Assembly (NCBI RefSeq): GCF_964355755.1
Contig: NC_092678.1
Coordinates: 3,426,422-3,490,421, forward strand
Length of the DNA stretch: 64,000 nt
Reading direction: 5' to 3'
DNA from: Antedon mediterranea
Lineage: Eukaryota > Animalia > Echinodermata
In this document: one piece after another, positions 18,942 through 61,608 of the stretch
Layout of the letters: each line of letters opens with the position of its first letter
Numbering within the stretch: position 1 is the stretch's first letter
The notes under the pieces: model-generated
Told to the model about the DNA's origin: nothing
Databases searched by the model: none
The model's input: only the letters and a program-made list of their open reading frames with translations
Made by a program: the position numbers and the translations under genes

Positions 18942-19123
18942 AATGCTTGGTTCCCACTAGCGACGCAACACAAGGACGTAACGCAACGCAAGTGAATTGA
19001 CCAATCACAAGCGATGGCTTATTCGCTTGTGATTGCTAACTGTCTATAACTTCGCTTGTCATTGGTTAAAACGCTTGCGTTGCGTTTACGTCCTTGCGTT
19101 ACGTTCTAGTGGGAACCAAGCTT
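18942..19123. mobile_element. MITE family B copy, inverted relative to 18288-18468
   Basis: Near-identical to the reverse complement of the inner copy. Confidence 0.88.
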
Positions 19124-19313
19124 AAAGCGTTACACGGGCAATTAAGCAATGTAGACAGTAGCCTGATCAAATCTCTATTTTGTTTTACTGTGTACTGAAG
19201 CATAATAATAACCTTCGCTGTTCTATTTTGTAAGAGGTAAAATGGTCACAGTCACACTCCAACACAGTTTATCCTCTACGTCCCTACTGATAAAATAGGA
19301 TAGTCGATGTTGC

Positions 19314-19322
19314 TATATAAAT
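19314..19322 (+). promoter_or_regulatory. TATA box of the first secreted gene
   Basis: TATATAAA about 70 nt upstream of ATG 19386. The paralog has a similar catatataat at 27061, about 100 nt before its ATG. Confidence 0.55.
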
Positions 19323-19385: not shown

Positions 19386-22300
19386 ATGAACCGACTTGCA
19401 GTAATTGTCTTGGCTGTGGCAGTTTTTGCTACTCTCGCCGAAGCAAAGAAATTTGCTAAAAAGGAGGAGGAGGTAGGCTTAAGTTCTTATAATTATCTTT
19501 TTCATTACTCACATGAACCATTGTATAGAGCCTATACTTACTGTAATCATCCACAAGGTTGATTACTGATACATTTTATTAATGTTTTCCTTTTTTTGTT
19601 CAGGGCCTCTCGAATGAACACTTGTGTATTGTTGAATGTAAGTAGTAAACTGAATCTAATACCTGTAATAATCATAATGATTTTGATCGCTGTTGAATTT
19701 CATTAATATAAAACTTGCTAAACATCGGAAACATTGCATACAATGAAGGTATTGCAAACGCCGAGATTAATTTATATATGTATATATATAGTAATATTAA
19801 TCAATAAAATATTAAACGTCTATTATTTTAATATATTTCCACAAACAAAACAAGCACAAAGATACAGATACAAAATTGCTTGCTTGTAGAATTAAAACAA
19901 AATAGACACTGAAATTATACAGTATAAAGAATACAGGCACGGTGATACAGGAGTATGCCTATTAACTTTATCTTCCTTCTAATATAAATAATGTCTCTCG
20001 GCACTATATATCCATTTATAGATTTGGGTATATTAGTTAGTTAGTTATCTTTTTGATTATATTATAAGATGATGCCCGTCCATTGGACGGGTAAATACTA
20101 ATAGGCCTATATATTATAATAATGATGATATTGAAAATAATGATGATGTTGAAAATGATGCTGCTGATGACGACGAAGATGGTGATGCTGTAATAAATAC
20201 AAAAACTTAACAAGCAAGTTTACTTTTTATCCAAGGCATGTGTAATGTATTTGACGAAGACAATAACGATTATCCAGTCGATTGTATGCCAAATGCATGT
20301 GAATATTCTGAAACACCTGAAAATTGTTGTAATGAAGATGAAGCCAATGGCTGGTTTTTCTATATTTCTGCTACGGGGGTGTGTTTTGATATCAAATGTC
20401 AAGGAAGTAAGTTTAAACATGAATTGTTCCATGGTTTAAAGATGAATTTACATGAAACTCGAACAAATATATATATATTTTAATTGCTCATACCAAAGAA
20501 TTATTTCTTGATGTGTCTAAAACTGTTTCTTCTCCCAGAAATTAATAGTGTTCACAGCTTTAACCAGTGTTTTGAATAATTTAACGAGTAATGTTTGTTG
20601 TCTTTGTTTTGTTGTTCTCTAGATGCTGCTGGCTGGGAAGAAGCATGTGGTAGGTATTAGGTATTGTTGTCAATAATATTAAAAGTCACGAAAGAAAATT
20701 TACGTCTTAAACGCCCATTAAATGTGCATGCCAGTGTAACTCCATCTATCAGGTTCAATATACATACTCCGAACGCTTATGGAAGTGTATTAGGCCAACG
20801 GTGGGTCATTGCGTTGTTCTCTCATGGCCCCCTCACTCTTTTTTCGACGGAAAACCCCAGAACTTGTTATACGTATTCTGTAGTGTTGTTTATTACTTCG
20901 ATACTGTGTACGTAATAAAAGGTTCTACTTGGCCAAGAGCTATTATTAATCTTCTAAAAAACATTACCAGTAGGCCTATCATTCCATTTGTTTTTTATGA
21001 TGTTGGTGAGAAGAATAGGCCTAATTTAGTAGGAAATAGATATATATATATATATATTTTGATATCGCATAAGCGACCATAACTATATTAATGTACAGCA
21101 ACGCCTACACTAGCAGATTCTCTTCGGGTAGTGTTTTCGGTGATGGGAAATTCCTTCTAAAACATCATCATACCACAACGTAGTCGTGATATGCAAATGG
21201 TTAATTATTGCTGAGGGCCTAAAGCTGAAGATTTACTAAGGTTCATACGAAGTTTTTAGTCGCGTGCAACTCGACTCTACAGCCCACTATGTCAGTCGGT
21301 TGGTCGGTCGGTCGTTAAATTAAGCCTAATACATAACTTGATGGCTTCGGTTATGTAGATCTACAAACCATAGTTAAAGTAAGTTAATATGCATTAGATG
21401 ATGTATTAATGTAAACATGTATGAAACTACGCTGATCATAATTGATGAAATAAAAGTTTTGGAAAAATCACAATAAAAAAAAGCTGAAATTAAATTAAAA
21501 TCATATAACGATGGCCAATAGAGCGTTTTCAAGTATGAAACGTCCGTTATGTCAATTCATTGTGCGGGGATATTGGGACGGGCTTTGCTCATCCTACCTG
21601 AACACAGTTTTGACGGTGCGACATCGTTTGACCTGACCTAGTTACGTCATTGGTCGTCGCAAATCGCAAGGTTTACCTCCTCAATAAGTAATATTATAAA
21701 GATGTTTTCTTTTCAATTAAAATTATATTAGGCCTATTTCATAATGATATTGAGCTTTTCACAAGATGAATATACTGTTTTTATTTTTTAAAGAATGTAG
21801 GAATGACATTGTCAACGGCGCAAATGGTACGTATGCTTTTATTTTTGTTTAATTTTTTTAACATCAAGTATTAATGGTTTTTTGCCAGTGACATGGAGAC
21901 GAGCATGAAAATATTAATACATTAATTCAATTTCAATATTGATATCCGTATCATAAATTTAAAGAAACCTTTTGTTAAACTGATTGATTATATTTACTTG
22001 AAGAGTATATACTTAACATTTTACGGCATCTTATAATATTAAATTTGAGTGTATTGTGACTGGATTTTGTGTGTGTTTTACTGCTATAATAAATATATTT
22101 ATTATTGATTGTTATACTTTTTTAAAGAAGGTTACATTTTCATAACTTCATATTTATTTTTGCTTGTTTTTTTGTTGCTAAAAATAAAGGGAATGAATGC
22201 ATTTCAATGTAAATTAAATGAAAGCTTGTTTATACAACGTAGAATTACAATACTAAAATAAGGCATTCTATGCAATATTAACATTATTATGATTAACATT

Positions 22301-23311
22301 TTCAAATTTCCAGTACAGGGGCAAATTAAGAAGACAACAGAATACATACAGTTATTGTAGCCTAACATAGATTACTCCTCTACATACATAATGCAAACAA
22401 GAGAAATAAACTCTGAATCATGTAGATTAATACATATTGTTATTCATAATATGATAGTTATTGTATTTGTTTAACTTTTTGGAATAAAAGATATCCTCAG
22501 TGCAGGAGATGATGAACTTCAATGTGGAGAAGGACAGGCTGGTGAAGATGAAGCGGGAGAGACTGACGAAGATATTGGTAAGACATTACTTTGTTTAAAA
22601 TAAATCATCATAAATCGCCCATAGATGGACAAACAGAAACAAGGGAGAAGTATTATTCTTTTTCCTTGTTTTTGTTTAAGCTTGGTTCCCACTAGAACGC
22701 AACGCAATAGTGCTGCAAACATCGATGGTTTGATTTCACGCTGGCGGGGGCAAACACAATGATTGGAAGGGCATTTTCTTATGTTGCGTAGATTGCGTTA
22801 CGTTGCGTCGCTAGTGGGAACCACACTTTATACGCATGCGAGGAAGAGGACCTGGTAAGGGTTCCACCTTTAAGCTTGGTTCCCACTAGCGACGCAACGT
22901 ATCGCAATCTACGCAACGTAAGCAAATGCCCTTCTAATAATTGTGTTTGCCTCCGCCTGTGTGAAATCAAACCTGCGATGTTTGCAGCACTATTGCGTCG
23001 TCGGTTCCCACTTGTGATTACGCATTCCATCACTCTGCGTCGATACGTCGCAGCGTTGTGCTCTAGTGGGAGAACCACGCTTTATAGGGTTACAGGAATG
23101 CCTATTATTTAATATTAATTAAATCAATAATATATTAAAATCTACCTTATTATCTGAAATAGATGAGAAGACTGCTGCTACTGCTAAGCGGGTAATGGCC
23201 AAAAAGAAGCTGATGGCTGCTAGACGCAAAGCAATGGCTAGCAAGAAATCGATGGCTAAAGAAAAGAAGCTGAAAGGTTTCATAGAGGCTTTCAAAAAAA
23301 GAAACATCTAA
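19386..23311 (+). CDS. Secreted precursor (about 195 aa): signal peptide, acidic 12-Cys core, basic Lys/Ala/Met-rich C-terminal tail; unknown family
   Basis: Exons 19386-19472 (MNRLAVIVLAVAVFATLAEAKKFAKKEEE), 19604-19637, 20236-20406, 20623-20649, 21794-21826, 22491-22577, 23163-23311 all have AG/GT borders and join in one frame (588 nt including TAA). TATA box about 70 nt upstream. Confidence 0.85.
22678..23082. mobile_element. Two adjacent MITE family B copies (22678-22828, 22872-23082) in the last intron of the first secreted gene
   Basis: aagcttggttcccactag ... ctagtgggaacc termini. Further copies at about 26197-26426 and 40037-40215. Confidence 0.82.
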
Positions 23312-25270
23312 ATAAGAAAGGAAAATCATTGAAGGCTTTATGGAAAGAAAGTGCTTTGATCATAATATCTATGCATTGTTTTAATATATTTGGTGACGGG
23401 AAGCTACACAATATTTCATTATTATAATGATTAGTGGTTAACAAGCAAAATATTATCAATTCATGATTTGTAAGTGTGTTTTATCACTCATAAATCTGAA
23501 AAACTTTCTATTTTTTAAAAATATAATAAAAAAAAATATTGCAAGCAAATGTGTTTTAGGTTGTGTTTATTGTTTTTCCTTTTCCAAAAAGAACTGTTAT
23601 TATTTTGTTGTGAACCGGAGATTAAAGTTCTTTCTAGTAACTACTGAACTAATTTAGCCCTACGGTGTCATTCAACAAACTTTCGCCTTCTGGTGACGGA
23701 TGATGATAATGATAAGGGTGGCAATCAAATGACATGACAACGGTAACGCTGACGATGATGAAAATAATTTTGAAATTCCTGTTTGGTAGCAGCAAAGTGG
23801 ATGAGTTTGGTCGTTGATTACGGGACAAAAATACAGTCCCCATAAATGAACGGAACGGTGTATAGCGCTAGGGCTTCTACGCATGCGCAGATTATTATTT
23901 CTTATAGTACCGTCTCCTCCTGTGTACCGTTCAAAAGCTCGCTGTTGGTTATTCAGTACAACCAGAACTTCTGGGATGTAAATAACAACCTCGTTTTCAC
24001 GCAGCTGTCTATAGAATAAATCTCATTCTGCGCACGCTAAGAAATAATGAGCACGCACATGATTTTTTACTCAATAGTGAAAGCGTGTTGTGAAACCAAA
24101 AGATCGGTTAATAATGTGTACAGTTTATGTTAAAACGTTTGTTGGGAAGAAACAGAAACGAGAAAAAGTACCTTGTCATCGCTGAACAGAGGTGTTAAAG
24201 GCTAGGTCGTAATAACTTAATGAGACGACCTAAAACATATTTTATATGTAAGACACTAATTGTACCATTAAATTATTGAATAGGCATATAGACAAAAGTA
24301 TGTTATGTGTACCATATACCTGTTAAATCAATGGTCAAAAGTAACATCTATTTCTTAGATAAATCGTGTATAATACCACCAAAATTACAAGTGAGAATCA
24401 AAATCAAAAGGTAGGCCTATTTAATGAAAACTGTCTTGAAATCACTTGACAGTTTCAAAAAGCTATTCTCATCATCAGAACTGTAAATTCATATAAAATA
24501 TCTTCATATACAGTACAATAATTTGAGTAATTATATTAAGAGCCAACAAAGCAAATATTTTGATATGAGAGGCAGCTCACCAGAACAAGAAAAACAGGAC
24601 AACACGAGAAGCTGTAATGGAAACTAAAAGAAGAGTAAAATATAAAATACTGTAATTTATAAGGCACTATTGATGTGAACGTGAACGACCATTATCCCAG
24701 AGTGTTGGACAAGTAAACAGAATATTATTTAAATTGGTTTGCGCTCCGAGTTTTGTGGTTTTTTGATTTATTATTTGAATTATGATCAAAACTAAATAAA
24801 TTATCAAATTGAGATGCTGAGCTTTTCTATTCGCATGAATGAACGCGTCATAACTCATTCCCTGAGCTCTCATTGGTTGCGCATATTTGTTTTAGAAAAA
24901 AAAGTAGAAACTCACTGAATGAAAAATTTAAGGAACTAGAATTCGTCGCAAGAGGGATTAGGAAGATAGAACCATGAATACGCATGCGCATAATCTGACG
25001 TTTACACTATCATACTTTATGTGATGTGTCCACATATGGACATGATGATGTCATTACACTACCATCGTATGTAGGCACATCACACTAGTTTGATAATGTA
25101 GACAGAGCTTAAGATCAACTTATCCAAATCATAGAATGAAAATAAAAGAACTGATTGCTCTATCAAAAGATAAAGATCTGCTATTCATTACAGCATGTAT
25201 AGTCTGCTCATGTCGCCCATATAAACGATTTATTTGAAAAAAACAGTAGGCCTATGTTGTCCAATTTGTA

Positions 25271-25410
25271 AAGCTTTGTCTACACTATCAAGCTTTATGT
25301 GAAAAAGTGGTCATATATGGACATTATGATGTCATATCACTACCATATTTAAGCATATCACTACCATATTTGGGCACATCACACTTTTTTTGATAGTGTA
25401 GATAGAGCTT
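25271..25410. mobile_element. MITE family A copy
   Basis: aagctttgtctacactatca ... tgatagtgtagatagagctt. Confidence 0.85.
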
Positions 25411-26620
25411 AATAAGACGAACATCCTGATTATGGGTTTATTGAATGAAATATAAGATTTTTTTTTATAAAGTCATGATTATACAATTAATGCGAGTATC
25501 GATATAGTTAACTTCAATTATTGAGACATGGAATGAATAAACACCAAATCTACCTTTAACTAAGCTTATAACAAGTTACTATTTGTTGGAATGTGTTGGT
25601 TTATAATTGGTGTACGTTTTGAATGTATAAACACAGAGAAATTAGTATGGTAAATAATCTCTTTTGCTTGATTAATTCCAACAAGGAGTGTGCGTTTTCT
25701 TTAGGCCTACGTTGTTTCTTTTGACAACCACCAGTAAACGGATGCATAAAGTGGTTTATCATGCGTGCTAATATTAAGTGTTTTCAATTTTTCGGTTGAA
25801 ATAGGCCATATGTTGGTATGAATACATTGGAATGTGATTATATTTAGTTAGATAGTAATTTAATTTCGGTCAATTAATTCACAATATCATATCTGACTGT
25901 TTTCATTTGCCACACCTGTAATTTAATATAGGCTAGTGGATCTTGCCCAATCTGACATGAACCATGTATTGAATACTCATACTGGATGAAAACAAGAACA
26001 ATACACGTTTGGAAGAATTAATTTTAACGTTCAAATTTGCCCAAATATGAAAATGTTATGTCGGCCTACCACCCAACTAAATATGTTCTGTATTCAGTGT
26101 GACTCACCCTACACTGTGAAAACAAGCGTCTTTAAAAATGGACGCGTCACTGAAAATAAGAAAATACTATAAACCTATTACCTTGATTCCTACTAAAGCT
26201 TGGTTCCCACTAGAAACGCAACGTAAGTGCGTAACGCAACGTAAATTATTTGACCAATCACAAGCAATGAACATTCAAACTGTCGCTTGTCATTGGTCCA
26301 CTCGCAAGGACGTAAAGCGCAGCGCAAGGAATTTGACTAACCACGACGTAATGTAATTGAGTGTAAACTTAACTTAACTTGTGCTTACGTCATTGTGTTG
26401 CGTCTAACAAGTGGGGGAACCAGCTTAAATGTGTTCATGGCACTGTCTGTAACGTGGAGTACCAAGTTGTCTACACTCAACATACTTGGATTTCTTTTAT
26501 GTTAACTTGTTTACAGTGACAAACGTAAACATTTTTTATGTATATTATACAATTAATACGGTATATAATCTAGTATATGTATTAAAATACGGCGCTGATT
26601 CGCCTGTACAGCGTATGCTT

Positions 26621-26743
26621 AAGCTCTGTCTTCACTTTCAAACTAGTTTTACAAAATAATGTGCCCAAATATGGTAGTAATATGACATCATTATGTCCAT
26701 ATATGGGCACATCACATAAAGTTTGATAGTGTAGACAGAGCTT
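26621..26743. mobile_element. MITE family A copy
   Basis: aagctctgtcttcactttcaaact ... agtttgatagtgtagacagagctt. Confidence 0.85.
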
Positions 26744-27159
26744 TAGAATTCAAGTGTTAGAGAGCCTTTTTTTTTTTTCGTTTTATTTTTAAATTTTTGG
26801 AACTGTCATGTTAAATACTATGGGAAACGTTCACATAACTGTTGGTAATATAAGTTATTCTTTTGTTTGAAATTCTGAAAGAAATCTTCCGGATAATTTA
26901 AACTAAAAATATTGTTATTGAAATCACTACTTGTAGATAACAATGATGCAGCAGATTATTACATTTTATACATGGGTAAACAGGCAAGTTTAGTTTGTAA
27001 CGTAGACATTAATAACTCAATAAACATACCTATTCAATAATAGAATCACCTGACAAGAAACATATATAATATACGTGCGTAAGAAGTTTCAACGCTTTAG
27101 CATATTTTTACTTCTTGATATCAATAAGCAGACGCTTAGTGAAACAATAAAAAGTAAAG

Positions 27160-30100
27160 ATGAACCGAGTCGCAGTCGTTATCTTGGCTGTGGCAGTGAT
27201 TGCCACACTCATCGAAGCAAGACCAAATCTTGCTAACAAGTTAAAGGTGAGTTATCCTTCTATTTTTACCGTTAGTGGGAATATCTTTTCTGTCTTTTTT
27301 ATTTGTTTGTTTGTATTATGCATTACATCGTGATGTAAATCTAAACATTGATAATGTTACTCTATCATCTAAACAAATATCCTTTTCTCGCTAGCTACCT
27401 GCTGATTGTTAAAAGCGCTTTATTGATATGACTACATCAATAACATACTCGCATTTCTAGTGTATTGTATTAAATCATCAAAGTAATATTGATACTAAAC
27501 ATACAAAGTAAAATACGTGATTTCCGGATTTTGAAAAAACTAACGGGAAGCTTCGATTATATTCCGTACTATAATAGTTTGGTTCATCGAGTGCACTCTG
27601 TAGAATTTGTGTTTTGTGTTTAATATACACCGAGTGTAACCGATGGAGGAACTCTCACGCAAAGAAACATTACAAACTAGGAAGGTATAATGAGGCATTC
27701 TATATACAGGTGTAAACTGTCATGCCACTCAAAGAAAACCCAAATTTGTGACTGCTTTTCTTTCGGGAGGGTATACTGTATTTACAAAAAGATTTTATAA
27801 AATAAAGCAAACTATTTATGCTTATATTTTTTGTTTTCAGAGTAAACGTGGAAAGAAATTACTAGAAAGTAAGTTTTAACCAAAATGGCACCATTATCTT
27901 AAAATTAATGTTCATTAAACAACCTATTAATATTTAAATAAATCACAAGACTCTCTAATGGTAAAAATGTAACATCTGTATTTAGAAAGAAAATGTATAC
28001 TTGTCTCATTTTGAGGCATTAGGTTCTGTCTCATGACATAAATCAAGATTTACCAATGCCCTGTTGACTGTAAAACAAACAACTTAACAATTTCTACGAT
28101 GAAATTAATTGATAAAACATTTTTAAATAAAAGGTTTATAAAAGATTCCAATACAAATACAACAAATAATGATGAAAAATATTATTTTAATAAGCTACCT
28201 TCTTGGAAATATTTTGGAGGCCACTAGAAATAAAATCACTAAATTATGTAACAACTATAGTAAAAATCTAAACATTTACATATTATTAAAAAAGGAATTG
28301 ACAATTTTTTTCTCAGTAATAAAGACCCCATTTTCTTTGATCTTAAATCCAATGATGTCTATCTATTAAATTCTGAGAACTGTGACGCCTCTAACGTCGA
28401 GGAAACTTCGCGACATCTAAAGATAAGAATCCATAAGAGTAGGGATTAAAATACACATATAGTACAAAGATATTAATTAGTAATAATAGAGAATTGTCTA
28501 GATCACAAAATACTTACCTGTATAAAAATGTAAGACCGTATTTCATTGCAGTGATGATGTTATTCGGCGTAACAACGAAACATTTTTGCTAACATTTTGT
28601 CATAACTCAAGTTTTCTTTTAATGTTGCTATGCTTTCGAAAGTTCGGAAACATTATTTTACATTACTTTAAACACTTCGGTGTCAATCAAAGACTTACAA
28701 ATGTTGGAAAAGCTCTTGAAAATCAAGTAAAAGCAGCTGATGTAAAATACATTCAAATAAATATTGTTATTGTTTTTTTTATAGTTTCTCAGAGAAAGAA
28801 AGAATGTAAGTATACAAAAATAGTTACCTTCAATTCAGTTTGCATTGAAGAATGCACCAATAATGATTTTCAAAAGCAGCATAAAACTGAATTAGTTAAA
28901 GACATATACAATCTTGTTATATTATTAATTGTTAATATTTTTTAATTTGTTATAATAATAATTATTAATTTCGCTAAACTAAACAATGAATTTTCTTCAC
29001 GTTTCTTGAATGCTGAACTATAAATTATTCTGATACTTAATGATTTGATTATTTTTTTTAAAACTTAAAGTAGCCGAGAAAAAAGATGTTTGTAAGTATA
29101 TCTTCTTTTTATTTATTGTTCTTATACAATCCGCAAAAATCAGAATAATAAACAATAATAAGCTTTATTTATTCATGGACACTTAACTCAACTAAAAGTT
29201 GTTTTTCAGTATGTAATAGAATGGTATACATCAACTTTTTGCGCTCGTATTTTAACGTACGTGCATGTTGCGTTTGCGTGGATTTTTAAAATTTAAATGT
29301 CTGTGAAATTTTATTTATCACAAAGGTCATCTATAATTCATGACGAAATTAATTTTAGCTTGAAAGTAAAGTTATTTGTGATTATTTTTATTTTGATTCT
29401 TTTAAGAATGTTTCCAACCTAGGCCTAGTTGTTTAGTATTTTTGAAGTTTATAATTTAAAAAAAAAAAATGTATGTGACATTTAAAGGATGATAAGGCTA
29501 ATTTAAAATAAAACGTGCTTTTTATGGTGTTAAATATAGGCTAAACATTGATTGTTTGGTGTCGTTTGTTAACACACTTTTATAGTGAATAAAAGAATAA
29601 ATAATATTATCAAAGAACTTATGATATTATCTACTTGCATGGGCAAGTGATCTGTTATTGTATTGTCAAATTCTATCTTAGCATTGGATCTACTGTATTA
29701 TACTGATTATTTTTACTGGAAGTTTTTTTAGACGGCCCTTGACAAATGTTCGAATTTCCACGCCACAAGCCGTGAAACCCCCAGGACTTATGACACAAAT
29801 TATGATAACATGTTTTGATTATGAAATTTAAAATTAAATTTGATTATGATTATTTTCACAGGGAGCGATGACGACTTCGATCTTGGTAAGTCTTTAACAC
29901 ATTTCCACAATGTTTATTTAAATCTATATGAAGTAGGGTAAAAGAATGCACAATAATAAAGTTACTTTAAAATAAAAACGTGTTTTATATTATTTCCAAA
30001 GATGACAAAAAATAAGTTTATTAACTCAAATTTCATAGTGATAATTAATTATAATAATTAACCTGCAAGTGATGCTACCGTATTGTTGAATAGATGAAAA

Positions 30101-33100
30101 TTATAAATATTGTGGAATGATGAATTTTATTAAAGGTAAACGTTCTTCCTAGATGGCGTATGGTATAACAATCACAAACAATTTCATGATAAATAAATTA
30201 GGCATAAACATTAAAAAAATATATTGTTAATAATAACTTACTTCGTATACCATATCCATAGAGTTATTTCTTTATCATCAAACTCATTCCAAAATTTTGG
30301 GATATTGTTGGATAGTGACATTTAAAGGATGATAAGGCTAATTTAAAATAAAACGTGCTTTTTATGGTGTTAAATATAGGCTAAACATTGATTGTTTGGT
30401 GTCGTTTGTTAACACACTTTTATAGTGAATAAAAGAATAAATAATATTATCAAAGAACTTATGATATTATCTACTTGCATGGGCAAGTGATCTGTTATTG
30501 TATTGTCAAATTCTATCTTAGCATTGGATCTACTGTATTATACTGATTATTTTTACTGGAAGTTTTTTTAGACGGCCCTTGACAAATGTTCGAATTTCCA
30601 CGCCACAAGCCGTGAAACCCCCAGGACTTATGACACAAATTATGATAACATGTTTTGATTATGAAATTTAAAATTAAATTTGATTATGATTATTTTCACA
30701 GGGAGCAATGAAGACTTCGATCTTGGTAAGTCTTTAACACATTTCCACAATGTTTATTTAAATCTATATGAAGTAGGGTAAAAGAATGCACAATAATAAA
30801 GTTACTTTAAAATAAAAACGTGTTTTATATTATTTCCAAAGATGACAAAAAATAAGTTTATTAACTCAAATTTCATAGTGATAATTAATTATAATAATTA
30901 ACCTGCAAGTGATGCTACCGTATTGTTGAATAGATGAAAATTATAAATATTGTGGAATGATGAATTTTATTAAAGGTAAACGTTCTTCCTAGATGGCGTA
31001 TGGTATAACAATCACAAACAATTTCATGATAAATAAATTAGGCATAAACATTAAAAAAATATATTGTTAATAATAACTTACTTCGTATACCATATCCATA
31101 GAGTTATTTCTTTATCATCAAACTCATTCCAAAATTTTGGGATATTGTTGGATAGTGACATTTAAAGGATGATAAGGCTAATTTAAAATAAAACGTGCTT
31201 TTTATGGTGTTAAATATAGGCTAAACATTGATTGTTTGGTGTCGTTTGTTAACACACTTTTATAGTGAATAAAAGAATAAATAATATTATCAAAGAACTT
31301 ATGATATTATCTACTTGCATGGGCAAGTGATCTGTTATTGTATTGTCAAATTCTATCTTAGCATTGGATCTACTGTATTATACTGATTATTTTTACTGGA
31401 AGTTTTTTTAGACGGCCCTTGACAAATGTTCGAATTTCCACGCCACAAGCCGTGAAACCCCCAGGACTTATGACACAAATTATGATAACATGTTTTGATT
31501 ATGAAATTTAAAATTAAATTTGATTATGATTATTTTCACAGGGAGCGATGACGACTTCGATCTTGGTAAGTCTTTAACACATTTCCACAATGTTTATTTA
31601 AATCTATATGAAGTAGGGTAAAAGAATGCACAATAATAAAGTTACTTTAAAATAAAAACGTGTTTTATATTATTTCCAAAGATGACAAAAAATAAGTTTA
31701 TTAACTCAAATTTCATAGTGATAATTAATTATAATAATTAACCTGCAAGTGATGCTACCGTATTGTTGAATAGATGAAAATTATAAATATTGTGGAATGA
31801 TGAATTTTATTAAAGGTAAACGTTCTTCCTAGATGGCGTATGGTATAACAATCACAAACAATTTCATGATAAATAAATTAGGCATAAACATTAAAAAAAT
31901 ATATTGTTAATAATAACTTACTTCGTATACCATATCCATAGAGTTATTTCTTTATCATCAAACTCATTCCAAAATTTTGGGATATTGTTGGATAACGTTT
32001 TTAAATTTAAACTTTTCAATATTTTCTGGTATTATGCGGTAATTAATATTTAATTGTGTTATCGACAAAACAACATTTTTTCTATGCTTATACCTTTTAA
32101 ATAAAAAATCCAATACTGTTCAATCGAATTAAAAGATGGGCCATATATAACGATTATACAATAATTATAAAACGTAATGATATAAGTTAATTTGAATTGT
32201 TTATGATTATTTTCACAGGATCGTTGTCCGATATTCCCGGTAAGTCAGATTTTTATTGTATCTAAATTAGGTCTATCTATACAACCACAACAGCGACATT
32301 TAGCAAAGTTTATGTCAAATAACTGCCAGACACATTCTTTGTAAAATGATCGGGTTAACGATACATTCACCCACGGAAATGGAAGAAACTATGATTACTT
32401 TCACATATTTTCCGTCACATATGTCATAACGTAGCTTAAGCAAAAAAACAAAAAAAATGTTAGTGTACCATTTTTATGCATATTAGGATATACTGATAAT
32501 AAAATTATTTATTTAGGTTCTTTCAAAGATGTTTAAACTGTCAATAACTTACTAAGATTAGTTGTATGTACTTAATTGTGTTAAACTACTGTGGAGTAAC
32601 TATGCGTCAGGGAGTTAATTTGTAAATACATTGAGAACAAGTTGTTCTTCGGTTGGACGCAAACCCACGACCTCCAGTGTTCTCAATGTACTTAGTATGT
32701 ATTTCAATGTTTATTGAGAGACCTCTAATAAATTTATCAGCATCTTTCAATTTGTTTAATAATAATAATATCATGGATTTATATAGCGATATATATATAA
32801 ACCAAATCGAAGTAAGGGGATACGCATTCGTCGCTAACCAGGGATCGGTCTAATTGAACTCCGGTTTAAAGGACCTAGATCTAAATTAGAATAACGATCG
32901 TTTTGAGGCAAATCAGTAAAGTAACAGTAAAACTGTACATGGAGTTAATTTTTATTAATTATTTAAATAAAGACTACTGTTGCACACATAATTGTAGCAC
33001 GCAGACGGCTATGTTTGTTGTAATATTCAATTGACTTTTCAGTGACGTGCATCCATTACATTATAATCGTGTTATGTTGTTCAATACGACCATTACTTAT

Positions 33101-33803
33101 TATCATTTTCTCTCTATGTTATTATGTTATGTAATACATCTATCGAATCAAAATTTGTTAAACCATTGAGAAAAACTATTTGTTTTTTCTCCATGGTAAA
33201 CGCAACGTGAACTTATGGACAAGATGAGTTTGCATATTGTTTACAGTGACAATAAATCCATATACTTGAAAAGCATCAATAGATTTTTAAAAGATAGCAA
33301 AACTGATTAGTTTGAGACATGCGTATACAATCTTTCGTTATAGGCAGCATATATTGCTAATTTTATTTTTGTTTGATTAATCACTGTTAATTTATATATA
33401 TACATTATCTTCACGTTTTAAAAGCTGAAATTTACATTATATTTTTACGTAATAAAAGTCATTAATATAATAATCTGATAAAATTGGTTTATGATTTTAC
33501 AGAAAATGCTTTGAGGCAGTCGCGAAGTCAGCCATTGTATTTAAAAAAAAAATTTTTGTGCCACTGTCGCCAATAATTAACAACGTTCGATTAAGTATAT
33601 AATTTTCCATTACTTATGAAACCGCCGGCGTGTGAATGTAGATTTTACTATTTATTTAAAAAATAACTACTGTTTGTTTGTTCGTTAGAAAATTCCCATT
33701 TATAAAATAGCAACTGTTAAACCACCATGTGATAAAGTTAATTAAAATAAGAAATTTCAGGGCCGTGGATGAACGTAATGTAGGCAAAAAATGAAATGTA
33801 TCC

Positions 33804-33835
<32 letters not shown>

Positions 33836-34544
33836 GTATTAGTGTTATTATTATTATTATTATTATTGAGGGGCACATTCATTGAAATAAGAAAATGAAT
33901 TGAAAGTGTTAAAAGTTAATTTGTAATAAATGTTTTTTATATTACTTTCACAGGTAAGTATTTCAGTATGTCCATACTGTAGTGTAAGCAACATGAAATG
34001 AAATGTAACTATCTCTTATGCCTATTATAGATTTTTAAAAAGTTTTAAAATGTCGTGTAGCCTATTAATATTATTAATATTATTAAGGGACCTATTCATT
34101 GAAATAAAAAATTATTGAAAGTCATAAAAGTTAATTTGTAATAAATGTTGTTTATATTACTTTCACAGGTGAGCAGTCGTACTCGTGTAAGTATTCCACG
34201 CATTTCCATACTGTAGTTTAAGCAATACGAAATGATATGTTACTATCGCTTATGCCTATTATAGATAAAAAAAAGAAGTTTGAAACGCAATGAAATGTTG
34301 GGTATCCTATTATTATTATTATTATTATTATTATTCTGGGGCCTATTCATTGAAATAAAAAATGAATTGAAAGTGATAAAAGTTAATTAACTATACCAAC
34401 TGAACAGCTAGGCTCCTCTTATATTATTTAATTGATTAATTCCTGTCACCCATTGATGTTTCTTCGTTTCGTATTGTTTATTTGACCAGCATATTTTAAT
34501 AGATCATTTCATTGAAAATGAATATGACACATAATACTCATAGC

Positions 34545-34611
<67 letters not shown>

Positions 34612-37600
34612 CGAGGGGCCTAACAATTATGGATGAATCTTCGAACTGTGATTGTGATTGGTGAATTCACTTACACGCATGCTAAAGCTTTAAAGTTTTA
34701 CCGAAAAATTACACAATAATTTATAATAATCAGAAAATCAAATAATCGTCCAATCAAATTACAGATTAGTCATGCGTCATAATAAATAGATACAATTGTT
34801 TTCATGTTGTATATTGATCTGTCAACTGATGAGTAAACAATAATGAAATATCATTAGATCGTTAATAATACGACTTGGGGCAAGCTTAACGCAAATGAGC
34901 CAGTTGAACCCCTCATGTTAAATAAAAACATAAAAAAGGAAAACAAAAGTAATTAATAAAATAAATTTAAAAAATGTAATTTCTGACTTTGTACTATTCC
35001 ATCATTTGTTCTTGAAAATGGATCCATTTTTTTATTATATTGTAGGCCTAAATGTTTTGTATTATTATATCTATGAAATCAAAATCTGATAAAATTGGTT
35101 TATGATTTTACAAAAAATACTTTGAGGCAGTCGTGAAAACATTTTTGTGGCACTTTCGCGAATAATTACAACAAATGAGTTTCTATTACTTATCAAACCG
35201 GCGCCATGTGAATGCATTTTGCTATTTATTTAAAAAATATTAAATTTATTAATATATGTAATACTATTTTTGGTTCGTTAGAAAATTCCCCTTTGTTTTA
35301 AAATTTTTATTATCGTTTTGATAATGATTTACCTTCAATAATTCAGGTTGCATATTGTTTACAGTGAAAGTAAATCCAGATACTTGAAAAGCATCAATAT
35401 GATTTTGAAAAGCTAGCAAAACTGATTTGTCTTGGACATGCGTATATAATCTTTCATTAGAGCGGCATAAAGCCTACTGCTAATTTTATTTTTATTTAAT
35501 TAATAATTTTAATTACCAGTTTCACTGTTAAAAAACATTTATATACATTGTCTTCACGTTTTTGAAAGCTGAAATTGACGGTACATTATATTTTTACGTA
35601 ATAAAAAAGAGTCATTAATATATATTTTTTACATACAGTAGCCGAGGACAAGAAGACCTGTAAGTATAGTCTATTTTATTGTGGCTTTATATGAACATTA
35701 AAACTTTGTTTGAATGTAAAATTTTTGTAGGCCTAACATTTTTAACTAAATTTTGAACTAAATATATATAATTTAACTTTCACATGGTCGTCATCCTGTT
35801 CTTAGTATTTTAAGTCATGTTTTAAGGGTCTTTCATACCTATTTCGGCACAGTTCCGGTAAGTATTTCACGCATGTCCATACTGTAATGTAAGCAATACA
35901 AATGAAATGTAACTATCTCGTATGCCTAGTAGTATAGATAAGTTTAAAAAGTAATGTCGAGTATCCTGTTATTATTAAGGGGCCTATTCATTGAAATAGT
36001 AAATGAATTGAAAGTGATAAAAGTTAATTTGTAATAAATGTTGTTTATATTCTTTTCACAGTGGGCTTGGTGTGGTTGTGTAAGTATTTCACACATTTCC
36101 ATACTGTAGAGTAAGCAATACGAAATGTAGGCTAACTATCTCTTATGCCTATTATAGATAACAAAGTTTAAGACGTAATGTCGAGTATCCTATTATTATT
36201 GAGGGGCATATTCATTGAAATAGAAAATGAATTGAAAGTGATAAAAGTTAATTTGTAATCGATTTTGTTTATATTACTTTCACAGTTGACTCGTACTTTT
36301 CGTCATGGTTGTGTAAGTATTTCACGCATTTTAATACTGTAGTGTAAGCAATATGAAATGAAATGTAACTATCTCTTAGTATAGATAAAAAAGTTTAAAA
36401 AGTAATTTCGAGTATCCTATTATTATTGAGGGGCCTATTCATTGAAATAGAAAATTAATTGAAAGTGTTAAAAGTTAATTTGTAATAAATGTTTTTTATA
36501 TTACTTTCACAGTAATACTGTAGTGTAAGCAATATGAAATGTTATTGTTACTATCTCGTATGCCTATTATAGATAAAAAAAGTTTGAAACGAAATGAAAT
36601 GTTGAGTATCCTATTATTATTATTATTATTATTGAGGGGCCTATTCATTGAAATAAAAAAATATTCAAAGTGATATGTAACTATCTCATATGCCTATTAT
36701 AGATAAAAGCGTACAATGATTTAAAATAAAATGGGGTTTATATTATTTTCATAATAATTAATTTATGGAATTCGGACTAATGAGATTATAATTAAATTAT
36801 TAACCTGTATGGGAGATTGATCCATATTGTCAAATTATAACTTAGCAATTGTTACCGATTATTTTTTACTAACGGTTCCATTTCTTACGAGGCCTTTTGA
36901 TAATTGTTTTGGCTTCTGCCACTGTAACCTATGAAATCTCCTGAATTTTCTACACAAATAAACTTGTGAAAAATATCATAACATTTTTGATAAGGAATAA
37001 TTTGAAATAAGTTGTTTTATGATTTTTTTCCACAGCGGAACAGCCTCCTGTCCGTAAGTTTTTAACACAACAAAAGTGACATTTTATCATGGTTCTAAAA
37101 TAACGTAAAATGAAAATGGGGTTTATTTTATTTTCATAGAATAATTAATTTATGAAATTCGGCCTAATGAGATATAATTAAATTATTAACAACTTGCATA
37201 GGCGATTGATCCATATTGTCAAATTATAACTTAGCAATTGTTACCGATTATTTTTTACTAACGGTTCCCTTTCTTACGGGGCCTTTTGATAATTGTTTTG
37301 GCTTCTGCCACTGTAACCTATGAAATCTCCTGAATTTTCTACACAAATAAACTTGTGAAAAATATCATAACATTTTTGATAAGGAATAATTTGAAATAAG
37401 TTGTTTTATGATTTTTTTCACAGCGGAACAGCCTCCTGTCCGTAAGTTTTTAACACAACAAAAGTGACATTTTACCATGGTTCTAAAATGAACGTACAAT
37501 GAAAATGGGGTTTACATTATTTTCATAGAATAATTAATTTATGGAATTCGGCCTAATGAGATATAATTAAATTATTAACAACCTGCATGGGCGATTGATC

Positions 37601-40600
37601 CCTATTGTCAAATTATAACTTAGCAATTGTTACCGATTATTTGTTACTAACGGTTCCCTTTCTTACGGGGCCTTTTGATACTTGTTTTGGCTTGTGCCAC
37701 TGTAACCTATGAAATCCCCTGAATTTTCTACACAAATGAACTTGTGAAAAATATCATAACATTTTAGATATGGAATAATTTGAAATAAGTTGTTTTATGA
37801 TTTTTTCCACAGCGGAACAGCCTCCTGGCGGTAAGTTTTTAACACAACAAAAGTGACATTTTACAATGCTTCTAAAATAACGTACAATGATTTAAAACAA
37901 AATAGGGTTTATATTATTTTCATAGAATAATTAATTTATGGAATTCGGCCTAATGAGATATAATTAAATTATTAACAACCTGGGCGAGTGATCCATATTG
38001 TCAAATTATAACTTAGTAATTGTTACCGATTACTTTTTACTAACGGTTCCCTTTCTTATGGGCCCTTTGATAATTGTTTTGGGTCTATCGAATAAAAACC
38101 TGTTAAACCATGGAAGACAAAAATCTTATGATTGATGAATTCACTTACGCGCAAGCTCAAGTTTTATCGAAAAATGACATAATAATTAATAACTATTATT
38201 GTTGTATTAAAAAAAAAAAGGTTTTTAAACAAAGTTATAATAATACTATATTATCATAATATTAATATTTTCTTTTTACAGTTCCGAACAAGAGGAATGA
38301 TGGAGGTAGGTTCACCGCGTTTATAAATATAAACTATTTTTCTTCCATGTTATTATGTAATACATCTATCGATTAAAAATCTGTTAAACCATTGAAGTAA
38401 AACATATTTTACTCCAGTATTTTTTACTGTCCTAGTCAAACATTAACGGAACTTATTTAAACTTCAGAAAATTAAAAAAAAGTAACAGATTAATCATTCA
38501 CGATAAATATATACTATTATTTTCATGTTGTATAATTGTTCTGTCAACTGATAATGTAAACAATAATGAAATATCATTAGTTTGTCAATACTCATGTAAT
38601 ATTTATCATAATTCATAATCAGTAAAATGATAATAATTCATTTTGAATTTTTTTTATATACGAGAAAACTTAAACTGCATAAGGCATTATGGTAAAATGA
38701 TAATAATTCATTTTGAATTTTCTTTATATACGAGAAAACTTAAACTGTATGAGGCGTATAATAATGATAATTATTACACTTTTGTTTACAGGTTTTGTTT
38801 ACGAAGGCAGCGGCGATGGTAAGTTGACGTTTTTACTGTTCTTCTGTTCATGAACCGCTTCCTAACTTATTTTCTGAAACATATTTTATCAACTGATAAA
38901 AAAATATAATAAATTACTTATAAATGTGATTTTTTAAATGTTGTGGGGAAAGCATCATTATGTTTGAATATAATTAATAATACAGGCTGAATAAATTAAA
39001 ATAAAATAAATTTGATTATATTGTAAACAAGTTATTAGAAAAATCACAGATTTATTACTTTAACTATATACAAACTTAAAACAGATTTTAAAGAAACCTT
39101 ATTATTAATAAATCCAATTACAAGATGCGCATGCGTCATATAATATATACTGTTATAATCACTTAACAATTACAAGATTGCTAATGTAAGTGTAATTCAA
39201 TATATTTTCGTAATACCATTACAGTATTAAGTTTTACTATAATAAATAATACAGGTTTAGTACTGTAATAATAATTTATTAAAAATCAAATCAATAAAAT
39301 ATAAAATAAATTGTACCTGCAATGTATGTATTATCATATCATGTTATATATCTTTTTATATACGAGAAACTTAAACTGCACGACGCATAATAATAATTAT
39401 TAAACTGTTGTTTACGAAAGCAGCAGTTGCTGTTCTTCTTTTCATTATTCCGGCTTAGTCCTGTTACTAACAGTACTAACAGTAAATTTATAATTAATAC
39501 ATTTAAAATATAACACAATTATGCTTGAACTTGAAACACAGAAATGTGTGGATACAAAATTATCTTGTAATATGTTGTATTATTACCATTACCTATTGAA
39601 TAAATCTTATTGAACTTTAGAACATTGAACCAATACCTCATACCTCATTGCTAATGTAATATAATATAAATAAAATATTTTTGTAATAGTATCATTATAT
39701 TTGACATAATTACTAGTTCAGTATAGTAATAATAATTTTTTATTGTTCTCATAAAAAAATTAAATATACCTGAAATTGATGTATTATTAATAGCATGTTA
39801 TTTTAATTATAATTCTTTCACACACTATTTTTTTTTTTACAGTTTTTGTTGATGAAGGTAAGTTTTAAAACAGAATTTATCCCCAGCTTCATGAACAGTT
39901 TTTGTTTTGAATGAGTTATACGATTGAAATAACAAACAAAATGGTATTTGGCACTGTTTATGCACTGATTCTGCTTACTGTAGGCTTATTTCACGCTTGG
40001 TCGCAATGCAAAGACGTAAGCGCGCCGCAAGTAATTAAGCGTGGTACCCACTAGCGACGCAACGCAAGGACGTAACGCAATGCAAGTGAATTGACCAATC
40101 ACAAGCGATGGCTTATTCGCTTGTCATTGCTAACTGTCTATAACTTCGCTTGTCATTGGTTAAAACGCTTGCGTTGCGTTTACGTCCTTGCATTACGTTC
40201 TAGTGGGAACCAAGCTTTAAGGGATGGATATTGTTTGCATGTGACTTTTATTTATCCATAAGAAAGAATTACCAAGTATAAAAACATCAATATGACAGAA
40301 TGAAATATGAACATAAAGGAAGGCGAGAAAAACTACATGCCTATCGAGCTCAACTTCCAAAATTAAAAAAAAAAGAAATGACATTTCTTTTAGAATATAT
40401 CAAGCAAATCATGTAAGAATTAATTAATATCAAAGTGCAGTAGTTATTGAGTATAATGCTTTATTTTTTTTAACTTTTTAGATGTTCGAGATGGTTCTGG
40501 CATGGGTAAGTTAAAAACTTTATTAATACTATAAAATGTTTATTGTAGTTTTTTTTGTCTTGTGTGAGTTCATCTCACGTTTATTTAAATTCTCATTGAT

Positions 40601-42964
40601 GAATATATTATATACATATAGGTAAGTTTTATTGTAGTTAGTGATAATTCATTATTAATCAAAGTAAATCGTAAGTACGAATATTTAGCAATTTGTACGC
40701 CCTGCATCCACTCCACATCCAGTAGGCTTATAAACAGTTCCATTAAACTGTTTTAAACTTTATTGATATCTATCATGTTTATAATTAGGCCTAAAATAAT
40801 TGTGTGTGTTAAAAGCTTTAACAAAATCAACAAAATCAAATTACAAGCTGCGCCGTATAGATACTATATAATAGTCATGTTTTCTTGTAATTTATTTTTT
40901 GCTGGTGGTATGGTACTATACTTTTACTTCTAAAATATACACTTTTTAAATTATTATTACCAATAAAAAAGAGAAGTGGGTGTTTCTTTTTCAGGAAGTT
41001 GACATATATGATTTATCTGATAATGATACAGTCAAATAATAATGTTAATAATTGTGTTGAATTGACATTATCATAATATAACCATGTTATTTGTTTTTTA
41101 TTATAGGTGATATGGAGGAGAGGGATGATGGTAGGTTTATGTTTTTTTTATTACAGTATATAGTTTTAGACGGTTTTGGGGTTTTTTCTTCTTATAAATA
41201 CTATTTGTTATCATGTTGTAAAATTGCTCTTTAACTGATAAGGTAAACAAGAATAAAATATTATTAGTTTGTCAATACTAATATTTACCATAATTATTCA
41301 ATTAAAAATCAATTTTATTTCATTTCCACATAGTTTTTGTATACTAATTTGTAGATGCAGTTTAAATAATGTAGTTGACTAATGTTTCATAAAGTAGTAA
41401 TGATTTTGAGAGTTTATTATTTTCGTATTTTAACAAAGAAAACAGATTGAAAACTATTGATATCAAATATATTTAATGTTTAAATTTAGAAAAGATTGGT
41501 TTGGTATGGGCTCGATAAGTTGATTTAAAACAAATACGAAGCGCTTTTTTCTGTAATTTAAAAAGATGGTCCAACTTTGTAGTTACCGTAGTAGTCCATG
41601 GCCATTGGAAATGTTTATTTGTAACAGTTCCCCATAACAAGTTACAATACGACAAATACGGAAAGAACCATGGTATTATAATGAAAAAAGAATATTTGTT
41701 GTTAAACTATATTTTTCTCATTGCTCCAATATTTCTTGATTTTTAGTTAATTGCTGTTTCAAGTTAAATTGGGTGTCAATTGTGATTCTAAGAAAATTTA
41801 AATGTTGTTTTTCTTTAATTAAAAGATTATCAATTTTGATTTTAAATTATTATTCCCTCGGACGTGTCTTCTGTCACTTAAAAAATATAAACGTTTGTTT
41901 ACAGGCAACGTTTCCACTGGCGACGACGCGGATAGTCACGGCAAGTTTGATTTTTTTAACTGTTTTTCTTTTCCCGAGCCACTTATGAACTTCTGAAATA
42001 TAAATTGTATTTTACCAAAAATAACTGTAATTTTCAATATATTTTCGCGATTGTATATTTAGGTTTGAATAATATTATAACTTAAAAACCCAAGTAAATC
42101 CAACTTCCAATTTATATTCTGTATTTTATTTACTCATTTGTTTTTGAGAATGGTTCCATGATGGTTCCGAAACGTCGATCTTTTTTCATAATTCCGGTTC
42201 AGTTCTGTAATAATAATTTTGAATTGTTGATTTGTATGCCCACCTCCACCAACAACAGGTTTCAATTTTTGCAAGTTAAATTTTACCTTAAATTGTTTTT
42301 ATTACTTGGGTAAAATGTTATATATATTATCAAAATATACAAACAGAAACAGTTCAATGAACATACTTGGCCGAGATTAAATGTTAGTTGCCATGTGCGT
42401 CATAATAAATTAATATTGACCAATCACAAACTGAACTGTTGCTTGTGATTCGTCAACTCATATTGTGTTTTGCCTACCTCATTGAGTTGCGTCCAGTTAT
42501 ATGTAAGCGTTAACAGCTCATCAATTAAAAAAATGTTGCTTGTAATTTGTGTCAAATATGACAAAAAAACATCGTGAAAAATAAAATTGTCGGTAACTTA
42601 TATTTTCATTTCAAATTAAAAATAATCCTTCGATTTATTTTGAATATTACAAAATTATAATTTTAAACATCTTTAATAAACAATTAAGTTTATTAGGACA
42701 TCGATTGATTTAGATTGGGTGGAAAGTGTAATATTGTCACATTATTGTAAGAGGTTACGTTATTTATTTGTATACTTATACTTGATATTAATAGGCAATG
42801 TAATAGGCAACAAGAAGACAAAGAAGGTTGCTCGTATGTTGGCGGCTAAGAAGATGATGGCGGCTAAGAAGATGATGGCGGCCAAAAAGGCGTTGGCTTC
42901 AAAGAACTTGCTGAAAGAGTTGGCTAAGAAGCGAGCCATGACCAAAGCCCTCAAGAAAAACTAA
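27160..42964 (+). CDS. Microexon-built secreted protein (about 235 aa if all exons are used), paralog of the 19386-23311 gene
   Basis: Exon 1 27160-27246 (MNRVAVVILAVAVIATLIEARPNLANKLK) and exon 2 27841-27868. Then 19 phase-1 exons, all multiples of 3: 28785-28805, 29071-29091, 29862-29885, 30702-30725, 31542-31565, 32219-32239, 34169-34186, 35639-35659, 36062-36079, 36286-36312, 37036-37053, 37424-37441, 37813-37830, 38282-38305, 38792-38818, 39843-39857, 40482-40505, 41107-41130, 41905-41940 (GC donor). Last exon 42795-42964 (KKVARMLAAKKMMAAKKMMAAKK...). The full join has no stop codon. Confidence 0.82.
29475..31994 (+). repeat. Three tandem 840-bp copies, each carrying one 24-nt microexon
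   Basis: Line-by-line identity at period 840; the only differences I found are at 30707 and 30712. Confidence 0.95.
33780..36705 (+). repeat. Family of about 225-bp intronic units (ggggcctattcattgaaat...ttactttcacag [exon] gtaagtatttcac...) in two clusters, with interspersed (ATT)n microsatellites
   Basis: Units recur near 33870, 34087, 34338, 35978, 36202, 36429 and 36635; (ATT)n tracts at about 33805, 34311 and 34547-34610. Confidence 0.85.
36710..38085 (+). repeat. About 3.5 tandem copies of an approximately 388-bp unit carrying the 18-nt EQPP(V/G) microexon
   Basis: Exons at 37036, 37424 and 37813 (spacings 388 and 389); the flanks are nearly identical. Confidence 0.92.
40037..40215. 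mobile_element. MITE family B copy in an intron of the microexon gene
   Basis: aagcgtggtacccactagcgacgc ... ctagtgggaaccaagctt. Confidence 0.85.
41400..41760 (-). mobile_element. Degenerate LINE (L2/CR1-group) reverse-transcriptase C-terminal fragment
   Basis: PYLSYCNLLWG...LFKLQKKALRIC..YRAHTKPIFSK is typical of the end of non-LTR ORF2; it is frameshifted. Confidence 0.75.
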
Positions 42965-43379
42965 AAGGGCATTAATAGCAAAGATACAAGAATAAAGTGT
43001 ATTTGATTGATATATGTTTAATCATTGGTGAATGGTGATGGGACCTTTAATATATAGGCCTACATTTATTCTGGCCACATTCGATATTCTTTCATCCTTA
43101 AGATAATATTTAACAACTTACATGTTTTAAATTGAGTTTATTTTTACAAAGTGTATTCATTATACACAGAAAGAGTGATATTCATGGAAACTTGTGAAAA
43201 TAACAATAAGAATAAAAACAACATTTTTAAATATGTACTATCTTATCTTTTAATAAACTTTATGCAGGCATTAATACTTTGTGTATATTGTTTTTCTAAA
43301 TTATGTGTACAATAGAACGACTTACAAATTGTGTATTTAAAGAGCAGGCAAAAAAATGTGCATGTTTGAGGGTGGGGAA

Positions 43380-48710: not shown

Positions 48711-48751
48711 ACTTAAATTAAAAGGTTAGGAAAGCAATGGCCTAAAATAAT

Positions 48752-61428: not shown

Positions 61429-61608
61429 CCATTGCAAACTCAAAATATGACAACATAGTCTCATCTTGTCATCGAAATTACCATTCCGATACCAATCTTG
61501 TGTTGAGTGGTCACTATACGTTTCCTTAATAGACCAGACCACATTTATACCATCTCATTCAACCAATTTTTGTCTCTACAAATATTATTACCTTATTGGG
61601 TGCTGTAC

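Follow-up and report, generated by a model that had tools for sequence, protein, structure and literature searches.

Two neighboring genes, here called gene 1 and gene 2, lie on the plus strand of a 64,000-nucleotide stretch from the crinoid Antedon mediterranea (assembly GCF_964355755.1, contig NC_092678.1, positions 3,426,422 to 3,490,421 of the forward strand). This whole stretch, to which all coordinates below refer, is called the window; it is animal DNA with a G+C content of 31.6%. The two genes resemble each other in their first and last exons and differ in what they code for in between. Together with PCNP14, a gene of the crinoid Anneissia japonica, they very probably make up a crinoid family with fixed ends, in which the middle of gene 2 is turning over by the birth and death of exons. 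Gene 1 has seven coding exons, and all of its introns are GT-AG. The support for each exon is given in brackets, where X1 is a sequencing run whose contigs were used for spliced joints and not for expression level:

19386 to 19472, plus strand: exon 1, coding part, 87 nt, phase 0, with a predicted signal peptide and a short arm carrying two KK pairs (sequence; matches XP_071960554.1)
19604 to 19637, plus strand: exon 2, 34 nt, phase 0 to 1, with the first Cys (length agrees with the X1 contig)
20236 to 20406, plus strand: exon 3, 171 nt, phase 1-1, core of an acidic 12-Cys domain (a single block in the spliced X1 record 1)
20623 to 20649, plus strand: exon 4, 27 nt, phase 1-1 (model; arithmetic of the X1 gap)
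21794 to 21826, plus strand: exon 5, 33 nt, phase 1-1 (model; arithmetic of the X1 gap)
22491 to 22577, plus strand: exon 6, 87 nt, phase 1-1, strongly acidic, with the last Cys (model; arithmetic of the X1 gap)
23163 to 23311, plus strand: last exon, coding part, a basic tail in which basic pairs recur with a 6-residue periodicity (model; X1 contig)

The stop codon occupies 23309-23311, and a poly(A) signal is found at 23525. The joined translation is identical, letter for letter, to the RefSeq protein XP_071960554.1 (195 aa, "uncharacterized protein [Antedon mediterranea]", in a cluster of one). X1 record 1 (675 nt) matches exon 3 at record positions 130-300 and the last exon from position 447; the 147 nt between them equal 27 + 33 + 87, the lengths of exons 4 to 6, and the 129 nt ahead of exon 3 fit 34 + 87 plus an 8-nt leader. 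The splicing of gene 1 was judged from these block positions and length arithmetic. The middle of the protein holds 12 Cys residues, spaced by 3, 1, 13, 4, 8, 0, 17, 4, 10, 1, and 20 residues, and 31 D/E versus 2 K/R. A scan for dibasic sites found none inside the Cys domain (residues 27-154), and the tail has 18 K/R in 48 aa. Exons of 36 nt or less (microexons) make up 16% of the coding sequence of this gene.

Gene 2 is built for the most part of microexons, many of them arranged in tandem units:

27160 to 27246, plus strand: exon 1, coding part, 87 nt, phase 0, with a predicted signal peptide and a short basic arm (predicted)
27841 to 27868, plus strand: exon 2, 28 nt, phase 0 to 1, with a KRG motif (predicted)
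28785 to 29091, plus strand: two basic microexons of 21 nt each, 28785-28805 and 29071-29091 (predicted; the splice-site scan recovered the first only)
29475 to 31994, plus strand: three tandem 840-bp intron-exon units, with 24-nt acidic microexons at 29862, 30702, and 31542 (predicted exons)
32219 to 32239, plus strand: microexon, 21 nt (predicted)
33775 to 36708, plus strand: series of ~220-bp intron-exon units, with candidate microexons at 34169-34186, 36062-36079, and 36286-36312 (candidate exons)
35639 to 35659, plus strand: microexon, a paralog of the one at 29071, interrupting the ~220-bp series (predicted)
36710 to 38082, plus strand: three tandem ~388-bp units, with 18-nt Pro-rich microexons at 37036, 37424, and 37813 (predicted)
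38282 to 38818, plus strand: microexons 38282-38305 and 38792-38818, the second with Ser-Gly between acidic residues (predicted)
39843 to 39857, plus strand: microexon, 15 nt (sequence present at the loose end of the X1 contig, immediately before 40482)
40482 to 40505, plus strand: microexon, 24 nt, with the second Ser-Gly site (GT..AG joint to 41107 in X1)
41107 to 41130, plus strand: microexon, 24 nt, acidic (GT..AG joints on both sides in X1)
41905 to 41940, plus strand: in-frame candidate exon, 36 nt, with a GC donor, alternative or dead (skipped in the X1 contig)
42795 to 42964, plus strand: last exon, coding part, a basic tail with repeated (M/L)AAKK (joint from 41130 to 42795 and coverage in X1 record 8)

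The core model of gene 2 has 15 internal microexons of 15-27 nt and gives a protein of 202 aa with 0 Cys; when four more candidate exons are added, the protein reaches 235 aa and the frame is still open. Sixteen of the 18 exons are 36 nt or less and hold 58-62% of the coding bases, most exons being predicted only. The middle has 33 D/E and 15 K/R (its first part is basic, and some of its microexons are Pro-rich), and the tail has 19 K/R in 55 aa. X1 record 8 (701 nt) carries GT..AG joints from 40505 to 41107 and from 41130 to 42795. Its loose end reads through the exon at 39843-39857 and then into an AGC-repeat end unlike exon 38792-38818 of the window; therefore, the animal sequenced in X1 has another allele or another exon at this point. 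A copy of the 38792 microexon without acceptor and donor lies at 39390-39430, and its AGC run resembles the end of the variant exon in X1. X1 also carries a 26-nt insertion and several small changes in the 3' untranslated region (UTR) of gene 2 (43145-43264) and one residue-changing base in the tail (42936). Because of these differences from the window, the locus is polymorphic between animals. Searches with the last exon or with a profile of exon 1 did not recover the gene 2 protein from the protein collection. Gene 2 may thus be unannotated, seemingly missed by standard annotation, and further members of the family may be hidden in the same way.

The first exons of the two genes are identical at 15 of 29 amino acids (15 of 20 in the signal part), a level reached by none of 2000 shuffles, and their DNA aligns with a z-score of 30. 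The last exons are also similar, both as protein (z = 4.9, reached by 1 of 2000 shuffles) and as DNA (z = 3.8-6.4 under four scorings). The middles, when compared in the same manner, gave z = 0.7, which 446 of 2000 shuffles reached, and no similarity was found between the 5' flanks, the first introns, or the last-intron acceptors of the two genes. At four-fold sites of the signal region 7 of 11 are identical, too few for dating the duplication. A preliminary description of the locus, made from the sequence alone, had proposed a tandem pair of paralogs with conserved ends and replaced middles, and most of the structure that it gave was borne out: first exons of 87 nt in phase 0 (19386-19472 and 27160-27246), a short second exon running from phase 0 to 1 (34 nt in gene 1 and 28 nt in gene 2), internal exons that are all symmetric in phase 1 (4 of 4 in gene 1 and 15 of 15 in the core model of gene 2), terminal exons that can be aligned at both ends, and an acidic 12-Cys middle in gene 1. 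Other points hold in part. The last exon is basic in both genes, but the exact MAAKK motif occurs in gene 2 only, gene 1 having variants of it. The claimed similarity of the 3' UTRs is borderline (eight tests, with z between -0.7 and 3.1), and the middle of gene 2, which is Cys-free in the core model as described, is not uniformly acidic.

The third member was found in the supplement of Aleotti et al. (2022; PMC9793003), which, like the other papers cited here by PMC number, was covered in part. PCNP14 is listed there as XP_033113992.1 (LOC117114436, an "isoform X2" record of Anneissia japonica), with coding exons of 87, 154, 45, 45, 45, and 134 nt, and the exon phases obtained from these lengths by arithmetic are those of both Antedon genes. 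Gene 1 and gene 2 share with PCNP14 an MNR(V/L)AV-type signal in an 87-nt phase-0 first exon, a second exon from phase 0 to 1, symmetric phase-1 internal exons, and a Lys/Ala-rich basic last exon. Furthermore, exon 2 of PCNP14 carries the KRG motif of gene 2 exon 2, and its last exon shares its first 7 bases with the last exon of gene 2 and is equally basic (14 K/R and no D/E in 44 aa, counted by eye). The middle of PCNP14 is Gly/Ser-rich at first and continues with three tandem-copy Trp-rich exons of 15 aa. Since the candidate microexon of gene 2 at 36286-36312 reads like a shortened version of this Trp-rich repeat (a match too short for testing), the middle of gene 2 may have some relation to that of PCNP14.

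In the parts of PMC9793003 covered, PCNP14 is presented as a single predicted neuropeptide precursor for which a five-residue amidated peptide is proposed, it is listed as N/A for A. mediterranea and Florometra, and no gene family or variable middles are mentioned. All three genes might accordingly code for neuropeptide precursors, with a short amidated peptide between dibasic sites. In favor of this are the predicted signal peptide (which PCNP14 also has under the criteria of that paper) and the dibasic sites, both of them features used as criteria there. However, neither Antedon gene codes for the five-residue peptide, and the only Gly-dibasic amidation site of the two genes lies in gene 2, behind a KR pair. 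Neuropeptide precursors normally conserve the mature peptide, the opposite of the pattern found here. The authors themselves term the PCNPs unconfirmed (PMC9793003). We consider this explanation most improbable and, because the predicted peptide is precisely the part that is not kept in the family, the neuropeptide label of PCNP14 is probably wrong.

The middle of gene 2 was scanned for cassettes (short acceptor-donor pairs) under the same rule as control sequence. The 14.9 kb that separate exon 2 from the last exon contain 23 cassettes, 20 of them with a length that is a multiple of three and 17 of them both a multiple of three and open in phase 1 (two acceptors were counted twice, with a second donor). 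The controls, 81.7 kb taken from the opposite strand, intergenic DNA, and the plexin gene of the window, gave 15 cassettes, only one of which was both a multiple of three and open. Three sets of tandem intron-exon units are present in gene 2 (840 bp, ~220 bp, and ~388 bp). In the 840-bp triple (three copies as in the assembly), copies 1 and 3 do not differ, and copy 2 departs from them at two sites, both in the 24-nt exon and both residue-changing (2 of 24 exon sites versus 0 of 816 intron sites, P = 0.0008). In the ~220-bp series, introns diverge by 11-16%, and 6-11 of 18 aligned sites are different among the three intact exons, with a 9-nt change in length; here, exon versus intron change was 6/18 versus 23/195 (P = 0.02) in one comparison and 8/18 versus 26/192 (P = 0.003) in another. 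Dead copies are also found in this series, namely a zero-length exon with the acceptor directly on the donor at 33953/33954 and a copy at 36513 devoid of exon and donor. The zero-length exon (33946-33960) is laid out like a recursive splice site and may still be active.

The microexons of gene 2 are thus very probably born by local tandem duplication, change fast, and die by deletion, and the phase-1 symmetry of the internal exons makes each gain or loss frame-neutral. These processes suffice to erase the similarity of the two middles without a swap from another locus. The 171-nt Cys exon of gene 1, of which no search returned a relative, may have been taken up from another locus or may be an ancient exon that the other genes have lost. 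The array might instead be neutral clutter, or partly an assembly artifact, in which duplications pile up and most of them are not spliced in. The lack of any difference between the first and third 840-bp units, the dead exon copies, the in-frame cassette skipped in X1, and the failure to find the gene 2 protein in the protein collection are all in line with this possibility. Nevertheless, cassettes that are intact, a multiple of three, and open lie far above the controls, three microexons are spliced in X1, and an artifact would not put both differences of the 840-bp unit in the exon. We regard clutter or artifact as very unlikely.

Database searches returned little beyond gene 1 itself. A protein search with gene 1 exon 3 found its own protein only (1 of 1 candidate), a search with the last exon of gene 2 found none among 400 candidates (the query began 4 codons inside the true exon), and a two-sequence profile of exon 1 of both genes found only XP_071960554.1 (1 of 491). 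The same protein was the only one returned by phmmer among 1.84 billion representatives, in a search that covered gene 1 and not the whole of gene 2. Blank protein searches are weak for such short and biased queries: PCNP14, a relative, was not returned either. Pfam gave no match up to E = 1 for the gene 1 protein and none for the last exon of gene 2, and no toxin or antimicrobial family was matched in the Pfam, PDB, or phmmer searches. A TrbK match in Pfam on gene 2 exon 1, below the cut-off, was discarded as hydrophobic noise, and a PDB sequence match at E = 1.2 was rejected, none being under E = 1. The ESM Atlas had no feature match for the 12-Cys domain, and its structure rows were rejected, since the predicted local distance difference test (pLDDT) of the underlying model was only 0.41; an AlphaFold model of gene 1 exon 3 alone (pLDDT 50) was too poor for a fold search. 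The spacing of the 12 Cys has a putative VWC- or pacifastin-like look. Viral, prokaryote, and metagenome scans produced 19, 314, and 600 pattern matches, respectively, none of them confirmed.

Regarding function, the family very probably uses a fixed frame, made of the 87-nt signal exon, the short exon that shifts to phase 1, and the lysine-rich last exon, around a phase-1 middle. The protein is probably secreted and probably processed at its pairs of basic residues, so that the variable middle would be set free as the functional product. The basic tail would be a pro-piece that binds and neutralizes the acidic middle while the protein is packed and that is removed afterwards, and the pressure to vary might reflect a role turned outward, in defence or recognition on the body surface. 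Dibasic sites do border the middle in both genes, and the charge is blocky, with an acidic middle and a tail of about +5 per 15 residues. Taken as a whole (crinoid family, exon turnover, secretion, dibasic cleavage, and packing tail), we hold this reading to be evenly poised between right and wrong.

The main rival is that these proteins are uncut structural polyampholytes, part of a glue, mucus, brood cement, or connective-tissue or skeletal matrix, in which the tail would bind the acidic middle or a polyanionic matrix, the middle would tune the material, and gene 2 may carry glycosaminoglycan. The block-wise charge would suit such a role, and growth of repeats by exon duplication is common in structural proteins. 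Gene 2 has two predicted Ser-Gly sites beside acidic residues, the arrangement of the loose rule for glycosaminoglycan attachment (PMC7570499), and PCNP14 has a similar Ser-Gly site together with its Trp-rich repeats. However, gene 1 lacks a Ser-Gly site and has an irregularly spaced 12-Cys domain, the concentration of residue changes in young exon copies is unexpected for filler, and many dibasic sites lie at both ends of the middle. A structural role is in our view possible but doubtful.

The tails themselves are less amphipathic than most of their shuffles (the observed moment was reached by 962 of 1000 and 818 of 1000), and the hydrophobic moment is under the shuffle mean in both. Because of this low amphipathicity, they fit a polycation or a piece to be cut rather than a membrane-active helix. 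This bears on another possibility, which reverses the roles first assigned to cargo and scaffold: the tail would be an active cationic antimicrobial peptide, and the acidic middle a neutralizing pro-piece free to drift. Conservation of the tail between the genes and its isoelectric point above 11 would be expected in such a case. Yet the tails are interrupted by basic pairs about every 6 residues, the 12-Cys domain would be costly as a spacer, and the conservation of the tail is partly compositional (z = 4.9). We think an active tail, of the kind seen in periculin-1 or arminin of Hydra (PMC11767717), unlikely.

Several points weigh against the reading that we prefer, a family with fixed ends whose variable middle is cut out and released. 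Its known members are three, and the identities of PCNP14 exon 1 with gene 2 (16/29) and gene 1 (15/29) were counted by eye, without an alignment statistic. Only the 3' end of gene 2 has splice support, the exons upstream of 39843 and the link from exon 1 to the last exon being predicted, and this support comes from contigs of a single run of a single study, X1, whose label as RNA is a guess. The faster change of exons than introns is a signal of few changes; the ~388-bp triple shows no significant excess (2/18 versus 11/250, P = 0.21), and intron homogenization by gene conversion would mimic the pattern, at least partly. The released peptide and its processing are predictions from sequence, and so is the N-terminus, which in both proteins reads as a hydrophobic signal peptide of ~20 residues. 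The dibasic sites are mostly KK, a poorer substrate for convertases than KR, and in gene 2 dibasic sites also occur inside the middle. Finally, the net charge of the mature part of gene 1 is about -14, and thus unbalanced; that of gene 2 is near neutral.

Apart from these two genes, the window contains the following features:

1 to 16130, plus strand: 3' part of a multi-exon plexin gene (one exon tested, matching Pfam Plexin_cytopl)
19314 to 19320, plus strand: putative TATA-like box 5' of gene 1 (motif scan)
27063 to 27069, plus strand: putative TATA-like box 5' of gene 2 (motif scan)

The plexin gene stops ~3.2 kb upstream of gene 1 and could be used as a synteny anchor in other crinoids. 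A short inverted-repeat element resembling miniature inverted-repeat transposable elements, with nested copies, is found at 18120-18480, 18940-19125, 22675-23080, 26190-26425, and 39990-40220, that is, 5' of both genes and inside late introns of both. At 22677-23123 the contig depth exceeds that of unique DNA by a factor of thousands, and therefore this element family is very abundant. Further along, a 223-codon open frame on the minus strand (48716-49384) arises from a 48-bp tandem repeat with Lys/Glu/His/Met-rich units of 16 residues, and could be a gene or a satellite. Exons of another gene lie at 54644-57768 on the plus strand, with a long last exon that has no Pfam match; its exon at 54644-54738 is presumably SH2-like, judging by eye. 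On the minus strand, a gene at 61600-63089 has an exon with poly-Gln, poly-Ser, and poly-Glu, and its exon at ~61640-61800 resembles by eye a Kazal-type Cys pattern.

These results tie two uncharacterized Antedon genes to the published orphan PCNP14 and provide a single gene in which microexons that were born, altered, and lost are all on record. A passage of a review of echinoderm antimicrobial peptides names those of sea stars, sea urchins, and sea cucumbers and none from crinoids, for which this family gives testable candidates. The Anneissia genome paper (PMC7351957), in four supplementary files, had no match to the terms sought. We found no published description of the family, its three middles, or its Antedon members, all of them new relative to the literature searched; subscription journals and bioRxiv or other closed supplements lay outside this scope.

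The preliminary description had compared the pair to toxin and antimicrobial precursor families and inferred a modular scaffold with interchangeable cargo. Fixed ends around a variable middle were confirmed, and PCNP14 strengthens them, but there is no sign of cargo imported from elsewhere, and the comparison with toxins and antimicrobial peptides is an analogy only. In conotoxin and frog-skin precursors the order is signal, pro-piece, and C-terminal mature peptide. They share with the Antedon genes the conserved signal exon, the variable cargo, and exon change that outpaces that of introns in young copies. However, the variable part in Antedon is acidic, is coded by several exons, and is placed between two conserved ends. 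Periculin-1 and arminin of Hydra, with an anionic N-terminal and a cationic C-terminal part (PMC11767717, as far as covered), offer another parallel, since here too an acidic region precedes a cationic C-terminal region in a secreted precursor. They differ in that periculin-1 has eight Cys in its cationic part, while in Antedon the acidic part carries the Cys, and the tail has neither Cys nor amphipathic character.

The growth of proteins by tandem symmetric exons is a known process (PMC3632108), and one of the closest known systems is that of the schistosome micro-exon genes (MEGs). In the parts of the literature covered, MEGs code for a signal peptide and a rapidly changing mature region, contain many symmetric exons no longer than 36 nt, and undergo exon duplication; they are said to occur in schistosomes, or in flatworms, alone (PMC4350168, PMC8293314). 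Gene 2 would resemble them in its predicted signal, its mostly predicted symmetric exons of that size, its exon duplication, and its fast mature region; as regards alternative splicing, one in-frame cassette is skipped in one contig here, and the PCNP14 record carries its isoform label. In contrast to MEGs, gene 1 (16% microexon) and PCNP14 (none) have no array, and a conserved basic last exon is not among the MEG features listed. By analogy, then, gene 2 would work like a schistosome MEG. It is not a member of that group: it is a crinoid gene, no homology was found in a search that covered gene 1 and not the whole of gene 2, its microexon content is 58-62%, and its relatives lack the array. 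If gene 2 is truly a secreted micro-exon gene of a crinoid, the design arose twice. As a tentative and rather doubtful extension, the whole family may be a crinoid-specific, diversity-generating system for defence or self/non-self recognition, in which a signal exon and a polycationic tail would carry a 12-Cys fold, a Trp-rich repeat, or alternatively spliced, polymorphic microexons under positive selection: a MEG-like system in a free-living deuterostome, convergent on the MEGs of schistosomes.

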